Positions 4,736 through 43,036 of a stretch of DNA of 43,036 nucleotides are shown here, in pieces (within the stretch, counting starts at the first letter, position 1; the number at the start of each line of letters is the position of its first letter). Below the pieces are notes generated by a model, which was not told the DNA's origin, did not search any database, and saw only the letters and a program-made list of their open reading frames with translations. The stretch is from a virus (lineage: Duplodnaviria > Heunggongvirae > Uroviricota > Caudoviricetes). The stretch covers positions 1 through 43,036 of the IMG/VR virus record IMGVR_UViG_2671180804_000003; one strand, 5' to 3'. The position numbers and the translations under genes are program-made.

Positions 4736-5817
4736 GTATTGAATCCCGCCAGGTTCTGGTAGAAGGCATATGGCTGAACGGAGAATGCTTCAGGCGGCAT
4801 CAGCGTCATGCGTGCATGGGTGCCGTAGTCATCGCGCATATAGGTGACTTCTGCCAGTAGCAATTCAGTCTTCGGCAACCGTAAGGTGGGAAGATCAACG
4901 GGGATCAATGTGTTTGGTTCCCACAGTTTCCCGTCTTTATCCCGCCAGGAATCGATGGTTACCGAGAGCTGTTTTGAACGTCCGTACCGCCGGTTCATTT
5001 CCCAGTCGATCGCACTTTGTGCCTGTTGAGTAGCCATCAGGGTACTTTCCACAATCGATATATGTTTTCGGTACCGCATGCGGGCGGCCTCCGGATCTCT
5101 CGCCGTTGCCAGAGTCACAGCGTCATAGGCCGTATCAGGCGAATACCCTGCAATTGGAGAAACGCTCATTGATACACCGACATAATCTGAAAACCTGTCA
5201 GCCATCGATTTGCGGTAGTATGCCTGCTCGACATTTACCCCTTCGGCTATCCCACTTGCCGCACGACGTGTTCCCACCCGGGTCAGTAACAGGTTTCCAT
5301 CGGGCTGATCGTAGTAAAGCAGAGCAGACCATCTGGCCACCCGATCGATGACTTCTTGCGGAGACTCACCCCAGTTCAGAGTGAACTGGGGTACCTTCAC
5401 AAGTTCATCAACATCCGTGGTTACGGTGATGCCGTAGTAGGATGCCAGGCGAGAAGCAATTTCAAGCGCATTACTGGCATTGATGACGTTGTTAGGCCAC
5501 TCGGCTGAGCAATCCACCAGGTCCTGACATTTGCTCCTGCCCGTGGCGCGGACCTCATGGCGGGAGCGCGATAGTGCGGGTTCCCAGTCATCAACATATC
5601 CCGTCAGTGTCAGATCATCTCCGATACGAACTTCACAAGACATTCCCTCTTCAACGAGTTGACGATCTTCGTTGCCAGGGAAGTAATCCATTAGCCCAAG
5701 ATCGAAATCAGAGGGAAAACGCTCAATACCCCGCGTTACCCGGACAGAATCCCACCCCTCGATGATTTTGCCGTCGACCGTCAAAGAAACAACATCCAGA
5801 TCGCTGTCTGCATTCAT
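4732..5817 (-). CDS. Baseplate hub / tail protein (Mu gp44-like, late control D family)
   Basis: 361 aa; synteny downstream of DNA circularisation protein. Confidence 0.65.
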   Translation of the reverse strand: MNADSDLDVVSLTVDGKIIEGWDSVRVTRGIERFPSDFDLGLMDYFPGNEDRQLVEEGMSCEVRIGDDLTLTGYVDDWEPALSRSRHEVRATGRSKCQDLVDCSAEWPNNVINASNALEIASRLASYYGITVTTDVDELVKVPQFTLNWGESPQEVIDRVARWSALLYYDQPDGNLLLTRVGTRRAASGIAEGVNVEQAYYRKSMADRFSDYVGVSMSVSPIAGYSPDTAYDAVTLATARDPEAARMRYRKHISIVESTLMATQQAQSAIDWEMNRRYGRSKQLSVTIDSWRDKDGKLWEPNTLIPVDLPTLRLPKTELLLAEVTYMRDDYGTHARMTLMPPEAFSVQPYAFYQNLAGFNT

Positions 5818-40586: not shown

Positions 40587-41768
40587 ATGGCAGCAAGGCC
40601 ACGAAAAAAAGAATACCGCCACCTTCCTGATTATCTTTTTTTTGATAAAGATCGTGGCGTGTATAAGTTCACGCTTATAACTGGGAAAAAGAAAACTCTC
40701 GGTTCGGATCGAGTAATGGCTATCGCCATCGCCCGAGAATATAACCTGAGGATGCGCCCTGAAAATACACCATCGATAGATTCATTAATTCGGGAATCGG
40801 GAGGGCTGAATGGTGAAGCCCACCCGTTTTCTGAACATGTTGATCGCATTATGGAGAGAGCGATCAAAGATGAGCAGCCGTCTAAAAGCACACTTGACGA
40901 TTGGAATAATGATGCCATCAGGGTTAAAGAATTTTTTAATAACATACCCGCATGCGATATTGAGCTTGAGCACGTAAATGCCTACATACGAAATTACCAT
41001 TCTGAATCGTCGGCCAATGTTCAGAACCGAAAAGTTAGCTTCCTGAAAAAGCTATTCTCTTATGCTGTTGATGAATCGCTAATGATGGATAACCCTGCAA
41101 CACGGAAAAAAATGCGGCGTGTCGATAAAAAGGTCCGCCGGCGACTCACTTTGGAACAGTTCTTGGCCATACATGCAGCTGCTGAACCTTGGCTGAAGAC
41201 TGCAATGGACCTTGCCATACAAACTACGCAAGCGCGCCTGGAAGTTTCCCGGATCCGGTACTCGATCAAGGAACCTCAAGAAGGGGTTTGCGGCTGTGTA
41301 TGGTTCGATCAGGAGGAGGCTGGCATATTCGGAACGCTTTACATTCACCGGCAAAAAGTGCAGCACAAAGAGGCTTCACACGTCGCTATTCCGATCGGCA
41401 GGGCCCTGAAAGAGATCATCGACAACAGCAGAGACAATGTGGCCAGTCCTTATGTTGTTCACCGGCTTCTGGAAAAGAGAAGCAATCCGATAAGTAAGGA
41501 AGTTAACCACCCAACACAGGTGGCCCCTGATTATTTGAGCAGGGCATTTTCAGAGCTGCGGGACCGGATAGGTGTAGCGGCAGAATTACCTATCAAAGAA
41601 AGGCCAACTTTCCACGAAATTAGAGCGCTGGCGGCTCATATTTTCGAAAGACAAGGTATCGATCCGCAGGCAAGGATGGCCCATAGTGATGCAAAATCGA
41701 CAAAAATTTATACCCAGAATCATGTTGAATGGGTTGAAGTACCACATGCAGAAATAAAAATGGCATAG
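40587..41768 (+). CDS. int: Tyrosine integrase, lambda Int family
   Basis: About 390 aa; N-terminal arm-binding-like region; C-terminal R...HxxR...Y region (HEIRALAAH, KIYTQNH). Confidence 0.9.
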   Translation: MAARPRKKEYRHLPDYLFFDKDRGVYKFTLITGKKKTLGSDRVMAIAIAREYNLRMRPENTPSIDSLIRESGGLNGEAHPFSEHVDRIMERAIKDEQPSKSTLDDWNNDAIRVKEFFNNIPACDIELEHVNAYIRNYHSESSANVQNRKVSFLKKLFSYAVDESLMMDNPATRKKMRRVDKKVRRRLTLEQFLAIHAAAEPWLKTAMDLAIQTTQARLEVSRIRYSIKEPQEGVCGCVWFDQEEAGIFGTLYIHRQKVQHKEASHVAIPIGRALKEIIDNSRDNVASPYVVHRLLEKRSNPISKEVNHPTQVAPDYLSRAFSELRDRIGVAAELPIKERPTFHEIRALAAHIFERQGIDPQARMAHSDAKSTKIYTQNHVEWVEVPHAEIKMA

Positions 41769-41792
41769 AAAAAGGCACCTGATGGTGCCTTG
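41768..41792 (-). terminator. Hairpin terminator at int stop (AGGCACC-tgat-GGTGCCT; T-run on minus strand)
   Basis: On the minus strand the stem is followed by TTTTTCT; also closes int on the plus strand. Confidence 0.45.
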
Positions 41793-41887
41793 AATAAAGT
41801 CTTGAATAAGACACCCGAAGGTGCCTTAAGTGGTTCTCTTAGCAACGAACTAAGAACGCCCACGCCTCATACCCATAATCATGAGCA

Positions 41888-41992
41888 TCAAGGACTTTTG
41901 CGGATTTCCCACGTACCTTGCGGTAACGGCAGAAAACCCAACGGAACCCTTTTGGTGCCGCTTTCGAAGCGATAGATTTCAAACTCATTCAT
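41888..41992 (-). CDS. Small ORF (34 aa) with strong Shine-Dalgarno; possibly a truncated gene at the attachment site
   Basis: TAAGGAGGTG 5 nt upstream of ATG; short ORF ending within the putative att region. Confidence 0.25.
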   Translation of the reverse strand: MNEFEIYRFESGTKRVPLGFLPLPQGTWEIRKSP

Positions 41993-42146
41993 GTAACACC
42001 TCCTTACCAAGAGAGATTTTTCCCTTGAACATCTTCCCTGAAGGTGTTAGTTTCAGGCTGTCTATTGAAGCTGTTCACGGTGGTGACGCCTCTCGGATTC
42101 ATCACCTTAAGACCCCTTGCATTGGTTGGCGCCAAGCAGGGGGTTT

Positions 42147-42668
42147 TTACATTTTGTCTAACTGATATCGTGCGGCCACTAATGATACTCCGCATGCCTC
42201 AGCTACATTTTCAGCACTCATACCTTTCAGAACATTGGCATGAATAGCCGGTACTAATAGCTCACCACTGAAACATTTGGCTTGCCACTCACTACTCTCA
42301 AAAGGGCGGATTTTTACCCCTGGAGCAGAACGCGCGAAAGCAATGTTCCTGTGCATGAGAAGATGTCCCAGTTCATGTGCGGCAGTCATCCTGTCACGCC
42401 CTACCCCATTCAAAGCACCCTCGTAAATGTCTTCACGAAGAATCAATAAATGTTCCTGTGGGTAGGTGAGACCGTGCGTCTCCCCCATTTCCTTCATCCC
42501 ACCGATATGGAGTTCAAAATCTGGGATCAACTGAGGCAATGCGAACTCAATCACCTCCATAACAGGAAACATCAGACCTGTAATACCGAAGGTGCTCCGC
42601 AGAGATCTGACGATAGAACGTATTGATTCGCGGTTCTGCGGGGGTACACGATAATCTTGTCCGCTCAA
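42147..42668 (-). CDS. ImmA/IrrE-family zinc metallopeptidase
   Basis: HExxH motif (AAHELGHLLMH); immediately downstream of XRE HTH gene. Confidence 0.8.
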   Translation of the reverse strand: MSGQDYRVPPQNRESIRSIVRSLRSTFGITGLMFPVMEVIEFALPQLIPDFELHIGGMKEMGETHGLTYPQEHLLILREDIYEGALNGVGRDRMTAAHELGHLLMHRNIAFARSAPGVKIRPFESSEWQAKCFSGELLVPAIHANVLKGMSAENVAEACGVSLVAARYQLDKM

Positions 42669-42676
42669 AATGCCTC

Positions 42677-43036
42677 CTACTGCTGTTTTCGATTCAAAAT
42701 CTGTCGTAAATTCCGGAAGTCTTCTTCATTTAACTCATCAAAACTACGAGCGAACGCAATTGCGACTTCACGAGCATGGTCGTTCTTACCTGACAAGCTG
42801 ATCTCTACTGATTGCTGAGAGTCACGAGCTGCACTGATAAGCTTTTCTTTTTGTTTTTCATCCGCATTCAGATAGCCAATGATGCTATCAAGCACGGGTT
42901 TAGTGACCGCCCTTTTACCAGTTTCGATTGCTGAAAGATAAGACGAGGTCATACCCATAGCCTCAGCCATGCTTTTAAGCGTAAGCCCCAGGTCTATGCG
43001 CATTTTTCTTACTGTCTTACCAAACGGCGTTAACAT
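42677..43036 (-). CDS. XRE-family HTH transcriptional regulator
   Basis: N-terminal HTH (LTLKSMAEAMGMTSSYLSAIETGKR); ATG at window edge. Confidence 0.8.
   Translation of the reverse strand: MLTPFGKTVRKMRIDLGLTLKSMAEAMGMTSSYLSAIETGKRAVTKPVLDSIIGYLNADEKQKEKLISAARDSQQSVEISLSGKNDHAREVAIAFARSFDELNEEDFRNLRQILNRKQQ

Follow-up and report, generated by a model that had tools for sequence, protein, structure and literature searches.

Pairs of an XRE-family helix-turn-helix (HTH) repressor gene and an M78 (ImmA/IrrE) metallopeptidase gene are among the commonest gene pairs of phages and mobile elements that lack an explanation, and the target that they control is usually unknown. One such pair stands at the end of a 43,036-nucleotide stretch of Caudoviricetes DNA (IMG/VR record IMGVR_UViG_2671180804_000003, positions 1 to 43,036; hereafter the window), which is 100% identical to part of the genome of Escherichia coli SZQ1 (NZ_CP173996.1). 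Its position raises the question of what the pair controls, and of whether it belongs to the prophage or to a neighbouring element. Our analysis points to a mobile three-part switch cassette inside the prophage, in which a 49-aa protein encoded behind a structured leader RNA would be the output, perhaps in a toxin-antitoxin-like arrangement; we hold this reading at little better than even confidence.

The first-pass annotation of the window had placed an HTH-XRE gene followed by an HExxH ImmA/IrrE peptidase gene at 42147-43036. Both genes are found there with Pfam support; they lie on the minus strand, which had been left unstated, and a third gene and an RNA leader, at 41839-42146, had been overlooked. 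The XRE gene (43036-42677, minus strand, 119 aa), recognized as an open reading frame (ORF) and by Pfam, the PADLOC capH profile and PGAP, begins with the final three bases of the window, which are its ATG. Its product carries the HTH in the N-terminal part (residues 5-63), followed by a C-terminal domain of ~55 residues. The Pfam matches, HTH_31 (2.4e-10) and HTH_3 (3.7e-10), both exceed the gathering threshold, and the capH match (4.6e-10) is full length, with residues 2-116 on profile positions 4-97 of 103. Nine base pairs separate the XRE stop codon from the start of the peptidase gene (42668-42147, minus strand), which encodes a single-domain zinc peptidase of 173 aa of the M78 (ImmA/IrrE, COG2856) family, for brevity also called ImmA here. 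It matches Peptidase_M78 (PF06114) with an E value of 3.6e-9 and 36.9 bits (cut-off 22). The zinc motif HELGH occupies residues 98-102, and H98, E99, H102, H106 and E127 did not vary in 31 homologues with identities down to 37%. The PADLOC capP profile also matched (1.1e-10), with only positions 56-147 of 242 covered, and a profile of the peptidase family, compared with the PDB, found CapP (7t5t_A, 3.7e-15), limited to residues 81-184 of 291, and IrrE (3dte, 3.1e-4). The aligned part is the catalytic domain of CapP alone, and the peptidase has no GAF domain. Its homologues form a family of ~173-181 aa throughout the Gammaproteobacteria; the ImmA of the ImmR/ImmA system is ~170 aa long. PGAP called the identical pair of coding sequences in 13 complete E. 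coli genomes. Taken alone, the gene pair is a typical representative of a class already known.

The third conserved component is a gene for a basic protein of 49 aa (MSLKSIASKAAPKGFRWVFCRYRKVRGKSAKVLDAHDYGYEAWAFLVRC; 41988-41839, minus strand), which is unannotated in SZQ1 and "hypothetical" in IPCEC31. An ORF of 49 aa follows the ImmA gene in Klebsiella, Aeromonas and Pseudoalteromonas (ImmA identity of 87%, 53% and 49%), at loci whose neighbours are otherwise unlike (a tail/P4-like region, the nin region and an integrase region, respectively) and where we found no conserved gene downstream of the small gene. Identity of the small protein is 60-80% among Gamma- and Betaproteobacteria, and with 13 invariant residues in 25 homologues its conservation exceeds that of ImmA. 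Differences between the small genes number 1688, 1145 and 4708 at codon positions 1, 2 and 3, and the synonymous share of differing codon pairs is 64% in frame as compared with 7-9% in the other frames, a pattern that identifies a protein-coding gene. The protein has a pI of 10.1, is not hydrophobic and looks soluble. No match was found in Pfam, NCBIfam or PADLOC; the only match was to phrog_33859 (1.5e-26), of unknown function, and an exhaustive profile search yielded 110 clusters, nearly all of less than 130 aa. AlphaFold (AF2) predicted a small β-rich fold with a pLDDT (predicted local distance difference test) of 89.9, for which no significant structural neighbour was found; a search of PDB sequences with the profile also gave no relative. 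An out-of-frame ATG is invariant 2-4 nt ahead of the real start (ATGnATG, ATGAGTG or ATGTG; window 41986-41992, minus strand). The real start is ATG in some homologues and GTG in others, and the spacing to the Shine-Dalgarno sequence (SD) is better for the out-of-frame ATG, which may be a decoy start or a part of the RNA structure.

To what extent do the pair and the small gene travel together? A survey of species-representative genomes found the small gene in 115 species, and 80 of these loci were examined, together with 80 loci on IMG/VR viral contigs. The XRE-ImmA pair lies directly upstream of the small gene at 46 of the 80 genome loci and at 63 of the 80 viral loci. Among the latter, 47 are within 3.9 kb of a contig end, and 19 have a convergent integrase gene within 700 nt, as in the window. 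The cassette is patchily distributed, being present in 13 of 5,426 E. coli genomes. The small gene also occurs in 28 plasmid records. An Acinetobacter plasmid that we examined has the canonical arrangement, and on two ColE1-type Klebsiella plasmids (4.0-4.6 kb) the pair belongs to a different subfamily (XRE of 97 aa, ImmA of 254 aa) and forms an operon divergent from a second one, composed of a YjzC-like gene, a leader and the small gene. Between the two operons lies a perfect 22-bp inverted repeat (AAAAGTATCGCCACAGCAATAC / GTATTGCTGTGGCGATACTTTT; L099 1240-1300 and L100 3560-3620, loci being numbered with an L). This independent, divergent architecture is the strongest evidence that XRE-ImmA pairs control the small protein. 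In the literature we found nothing specific on the XRE-ImmA-small-protein trio or on the associated RNA motif.

At the other 34 genome loci, where a motif search for hidden M78 peptidases found none, the partners of the small gene are a family of 188-195 aa, a family of 240-263 aa, GmrSD-like genes, a STAND NTPase gene, or XRE with a RadC/JAB protein; a further partner, judged by its N-terminal sequence alone, is presumably NrdJ-like. Upstream partners of the 188-aa and 256-aa families had no match in Pfam, NCBIfam or PADLOC. GmrSD-like, STAND NTPase and TIR genes adjoin the small gene at some loci. In Thalassolituus / Saccharospirillaceae (L055 1593-3179 and L092) the small gene stands after an XRE gene and a gene for a RadC-like JAB metallopeptidase (PF04002, 4e-47), a comparable sensor pair in which the protease fold differs, and here the integrase gene is again convergent. 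Four Competibacteraceae loci (L079, L080, L082 and L089), in what seems ordinary chromosome, have the small gene and a class-I-like leader right after a gene of ~720-744 aa, which we take from its N-terminal sequence to be NrdJ, and no XRE-ImmA pair. Two further loci (L085 3003-3986 and L087 1416-2417) have tyrosine-recombinase profile matches ~0.2-0.9 kb downstream of the small gene; the N-termini of these recombinases resemble, as we judge them, those of integron integrases.

Between the stop codon of the ImmA gene and the small gene lies a covarying leader RNA of ~160 nt (41989-42146, minus strand). It comprises hairpin P1 (42143-42113; loop CGCCAA), hairpin P2 (42106-42082; loop AATCCGAGAGG), a long hairpin P3 (42076-42027; loop ACTAACACC), a pyrimidine tract (42017-42007), the SD AAGGAGGTG (42005-41997), which is invariant across the leaders, and the ATGnATG (41992-41986), all on the minus strand. 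Across genera the gap between the ImmA gene and the small gene is 118-209 nt, mostly 140-180, and the conserved loops are CGCCAA in P1, CCAAGAGG in P2 and TAACACC or TAGCACC in P3. Compensatory changes in this spacer are evident by eye, and the z-score of its minimum free energy is -2.9. RNAalifold recovered the structure in part from the raw MAFFT alignment; the helices were then defined by hand and with a covariance model, built from seven sequences and a hand-drawn structure, which recovered 25 leaders at E <1e-3. In these 25 leaders, 88.1% of the cells were paired, as compared with 57.5% in shuffled alignments (0 of 500 as high) and 40-45% in slid ones; 36 of 38 pairs were compensated, and the covariation score was 0.70 (0.19 when shuffled). 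Because this alignment was fitted to the model, a structure-blind MAFFT alignment of 14 leaders is the fairer test: there, 77.6% of the cells were paired, as compared with 66.1% when shuffled (0 of 500 as high) and 39-53% when slid, 29 of 40 pairs were compensated, and the covariation score was 0.365, as compared with 0.19. In the MAFFT alignment a pseudoknot between the P2 loop and the pyrimidine tract was paired in 86.6% of the cells, with four of its seven pairs compensated. The SD is an alternative partner of the tract, with 93.5% of the cells paired. A further helix, P4 (CAAGG:CUCUUG), was rejected as a firm element, being only 71% paired, and an attC-like, integron-cassette structure for P1 was set aside, as judged by eye only.

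Where the small gene follows other genes, a second class of leader is found, in which a purine-rich element (GGGAAGC, GGAGAGC or GGGAGGC) forms an analogous helix with a pyrimidine loop immediately ahead of the SD, again with covariation, for example GGGAAGC:GCUUCCC. The covariance model of the first class, R1, missed the leaders of Acinetobacter and of the ColE1-type plasmids, which thus represent divergent variants. A search of Rfam 15 at E values up to 10 returned only STnc130 (E 7.7), a chance match to the terminator, and 12 related loci gave no Rfam family at the gathering threshold. The leader RNA and the small protein both appear to be undescribed.

The sequence upstream of the XRE gene, past the window end, holds a candidate operator. 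A palindrome, ATCAACA-N6-TGTTGAT (7-6-7), spans the stretch 76-95 bp ahead of the XRE start codon (ATCAACAAAATTCTGTTGAT; L004 1283-1302, which would be 43112-43131 in window numbering). Its conservation extends from E. coli to Pseudoalteromonas, and Vibrio has a GGTT variant. The 49-kb prophage region contains a single exact copy, which argues that the XRE protein regulates its own operon only. The palindrome overlaps a possible -35 element (TTGATT), with TAACTT 17 nt further on and a TG upstream of it, and we infer that a promoter may be located here. In a Lysobacter locus (L039, ~4770-4895), eight tandem 8-mers, ACGACTAA/CACGACTA, stand directly upstream of the XRE start, where other genera have the palindrome.

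We then asked to which element the pair belongs. In SZQ1 a lambdoid prophage is integrated between a tRNA-Pro gene, beside yejM, and yejO, and the XRE-peptidase pair sits between int and the attachment site of this prophage. Past the window end there follow ~160 bp of the cassette, with the putative promoter and operator, the attP arm and core, a tRNA-Pro fragment and then the core genes yejO, narP, ccm and nap. The yejO side is matched by all 5,426 complete E. coli genomes; in prophage-free genomes, K-12 among them, alignment begins only at L001 21635, a point 298 bp outside the window end that is annotated as tRNA-Pro (a partial 3' copy). A tRNA scan of the window found none, the tRNA fragment of the att site lying just outside. 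Exactly two copies of the att repeat (72 nt, 88% identity, core of ~50 nt) are present in the 49-kb region, one at the genuine tRNA gene and the other past the XRE gene, which indicates a single integrated element with the pair within it; a second element in tandem was ruled out, there being no third att copy. The phage record KM389287.1 runs unbroken through int, ImmA, XRE and attP to the UmuD-like/DinI side, consistent with the pair belonging to the excised phage genome. On its sequence context, then, the pair is inside the prophage, as phage cargo at the int-attP junction, and not in a neighbouring element. The first-pass annotation had considered it probably part of such an element, with downstream genes past the window, and had suggested inspecting the sequence beyond 43036 for defence or mobile-element genes. 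The sequence there holds core genes and no cargo, the outcome that the annotation itself had named as a refutation. These genes, the att count, the contiguous phage contig and the partner gene at 41839-41988 all contradict that assignment. Its view of the pair as an accessory module apart from the cI/cro switch is borne out: the prophage encodes a LexA-like CI and a Cro of its own.

Several observations concern the surroundings of the site. Next to attP, towards the tail-fibre genes, are a DinI gene and a UmuD-like gene (L004 46813-47735, outside the window), as in the isolated sister phage Flotzy, and in the circular phage the UmuD-like gene, a hypothetical gene upstream of it, attP, XRE and ImmA all point in the same direction. 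Several viral contigs (IMG/VR L105, L107, L111, L113, L114, L125 and L181) have their first base ~1,049 nt ahead of the small gene. This point is the XRE start codon, at which the window also ends (43036). Prophage boundary calls seem to be trimmed at a gene start, with loss of the promoter, operator and att site. Elsewhere in the window, an early-region phage gene (39758-40330, plus strand) encodes a full-length Rv2179c-like 3'-5' exoribonuclease domain (PF16473, 2.5e-72).

Comparison with other genomes delimits the cassette. The int gene of Flotzy matches the window at 97% identity as far as position 41755, the attP region follows directly and the pair is absent; this defines an insertion of 1.44 kb, from window position 41756 to ~43196. 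Eight other E. coli genomes carry a segment 89-91% identical (window 41805 to ~43210) in a different, prophage-rich context. By pairwise blastn the left junction falls at 41756-41805, between the end of Flotzy int homology at 41755 and position 41805, from which the cassette copy in IPCEC31 is homologous; the right junction, putative promoter and operator are 76-175 bp past the window end. Two similar hairpins 3' of the small gene (41767-41827, minus strand) were found by a terminator scan. The one at 41827-41808 is a remnant of the cassette's own terminator, and the one at 41791-41767 (GGCACC-ATCA-GGTGCC, then TTTTTCT) is common to the cassette and int, back to back; in IPCEC31 the cassette terminates at the equivalent hairpin, there with a T-run. 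The hairpins between int and the small gene are near-identical (AAGGCACC...GGTGCCTT) and resemble a duplicated terminator, possibly a recombination scar of the entry of the cassette. We conclude that the cassette is a self-contained, horizontally mobile three-part unit carried as a moron between int and attP, a junction that is a recurrent site for morons.

Most likely, by analogy with characterized pairs, the two genes encode an autorepressor and a peptidase that inactivates it. As suggested by homology to ImmR/ImmA, DdrO/IrrE and CapH/CapP, the XRE protein would bind the palindrome over the putative -35 element and repress its own operon. Upon a stress signal, the peptidase would cleave the XRE protein; transcription would then rise and would continue past the weak P1 hairpin into the leader, attenuation at P1 being conjectural. 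To judge from the anatomy of the RNA, the pyrimidine tract could pair either with the SD or with a purine-rich SD mimic in the P2 loop, and competition among tract, SD and mimic would impose a second, translational gate on the small protein. As the output, the small protein might act, and here we are guessing, on a conserved host target as a growth-arrest or anti-phage effector. That it is indeed a host-directed growth-arrest or defence effector we propose tentatively, at clearly less than even confidence, because of its patchy distribution on mobile elements and plasmids, the defence-type neighbours at some loci, the layered control and the strong conservation across hosts; its basic pI and the earlier prediction of three-component Xre-COG2856 systems (PMC2701414) also speak for it. 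A little more doubtful still is a wider proposal, that the leader is an undescribed class of cis-regulatory RNA (a switch of SD mimic, anti-SD tract and SD, with a pseudoknot, in at least two variants) gating a widespread family of ~49-aa basic β-proteins, which would be the common effector of several sensor modules (XRE-ImmA, XRE-RadC/JAB and unknown 190-aa and 250-aa proteins) on phages, plasmids and islands.

A number of results weigh against such a switch and its proposed output. The peptidase is devoid of the GAF/single-stranded DNA (ssDNA)-sensing domain of CapP and IrrE, and as the GAF groove is absent, ssDNA cannot be assumed to be the trigger. The pair is not obligatory, 34 of the 80 genome loci having the small gene without XRE-ImmA. 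A simple promoter scan found no sigma-70 site on either strand, and the proposed -35 and -10 elements are weak. P1 has no clear U-run, and the pairing statistics of the model-fitted alignment are inflated. Finally, the small protein matches no toxin fold and no PADLOC model, and it is not hydrophobic.

How does the cassette compare with known systems? The best profile matches of the pair are to CapH/CapP, a CBASS-associated HTH repressor and ssDNA-activated metallopeptidase (Lau et al., 2022, bioRxiv 10.1101/2022.04.27.489752; Calloji et al., 2026), with which it shares a two-gene logic, an M78 peptidase beside a repressor that has a C-terminal domain; in the plasmid variant the pair is also divergent from its cargo, as is CapH/CapP. 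However, the C-terminal GAF domain of CapP, which forms an ssDNA-binding groove (Lau et al., 2022, bioRxiv 10.1101/2022.04.27.489752), has no counterpart in the 173-aa peptidase, no CBASS or known defence operon adjoins the pair, whose neighbours are int, the 49-aa gene and the att site, and the cargo, the gene for a 49-aa protein preceded by an RNA leader, runs in the same direction as the pair. The ImmR/ImmA system of ICEBs1 and phage phi105 likewise has, as the sources summarize it, a single-domain M78 peptidase right after an XRE repressor, beside an integrase gene and on a mobile element (Lau et al., 2022; PMC2701414). In contrast to ImmR/ImmA, the pair is not the master immunity switch, because the prophage has its own CI/Cro; its sole exact operator is at its own promoter, Flotzy does without it, and the cassette is convergent with int and not co-transcribed. 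DdrO/IrrE (PprI) of Deinococcus shares an XRE repressor cleaved by a COG2856 peptidase, but IrrE has an HTH and a GAF domain and serves a chromosomal DNA-repair regulon, whereas here the cassette is minimal and mobile. A similar concept is that of the three-component Xre-COG2856 toxin-antitoxin systems, abundant in prophages, in which the protease was predicted to cleave the Xre repressor controlling a third, effector gene (Makarova, Wolf and Koonin, 2009; PMC2701414). The third components predicted for them are RelE or PIN toxins, unlike the unrelated, β-rich basic protein of 49 aa and its structured leader. A type I toxin-antitoxin system was rejected, as the small protein is basic and not hydrophobic and the promoter scan found no promoter-like site on either strand.

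Other explanations were weighed against the three-part switch. Xre-COG2856 pairs are common as two-gene modules (PMC2701414), P1 could be a mere terminator, and the pair is missing at many small-gene loci, so that the pair could be a plain type II toxin-antitoxin or regulator pair to which the downstream ORF and the hairpins are incidental. Nevertheless, the small gene trails ImmA at similar spacing at most of the loci in both surveys and is the more conserved of the two, the spacer has four covarying helices and a pseudoknot rather than one terminator, and the divergent arrangement on plasmids is independent; we consider this explanation improbable, slightly more so than the two that follow. 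A small regulated gene in a temperate phage also recalls the prophage induction modules of a transcription factor and a small ORF (TF-smORF), which are divergent and activator-driven and whose lineage-specific smORFs target the cognate cI (Silpe et al., 2023, PMC10432266): there, as in the cassette by our reading, a transcription factor encoded by a phage governs a small unannotated gene next to its own. The small protein could accordingly be a CI antirepressor, with XRE/ImmA as a second, SOS-independent input to the lysis-lysogeny decision. A transcription factor and a gene of less than 60 aa in a phage with a LexA-like CI, the recurring position of the cassette at the int-attP end, and the DinI and UmuD-like genes that flank attP would fit. 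This is nonetheless improbable: the smORFs of Silpe et al. have no homologues and are specific for the cognate cI, whereas the conservation of the small protein across Gamma- and Betaproteobacteria argues against a cI-specific antirepressor; the genes of the cassette are co-directional, whereas TF-smORF modules are divergent; and the small gene, present in 115 species, also occurs outside phages, on 4-kb ColE1-type plasmids and after GmrSD-like, STAND NTPase and what we presume, from the N-terminus only, to be NrdJ-like genes, with no phage repressor nearby.

Comparably improbable is that the leader serves mainly as a protein-binding, autoregulatory site, for instance for the small basic protein, rather than as an SD-sequestering switch. 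The high conservation of the loops (CGCCAA, CCAAGAGG and TAACACC/TAGCACC) and the very basic nature of the protein would agree with this, but the covarying helix of purine mimic and pyrimidine tract, present in both leader classes, favours competition for the SD, and the two ideas are compatible. Finally, the pair is dispensable to the phage, as Flotzy exists without it, and is found in other contexts, as might be expected if it were the sensor of a separate mobile or defence element past 43036, or the remnant of an element in tandem. With the core genes in the flank, only two att copies, a phage contig contiguous across attP, and the cassette on IMG/VR viral contigs, usually at their ends, this is very improbable.

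The boundary call is thereby corrected, the cassette being cargo of the phage itself, between int and attP. For an XRE + M78 pair, a likely controlled output can here be named, a conserved 49-aa protein missed by annotation in SZQ1, with a leader absent from Rfam. The 1.4-kb cassette is a clonable E. coli unit and a testbed for the triggering of a GAF-less ImmA, for a new small-protein family and for a possible translational switch. If the wider proposal on the leader and the small-protein family is true, the cassette would be a new stress- or infection-triggered effector system, and not an ordinary regulator pair.

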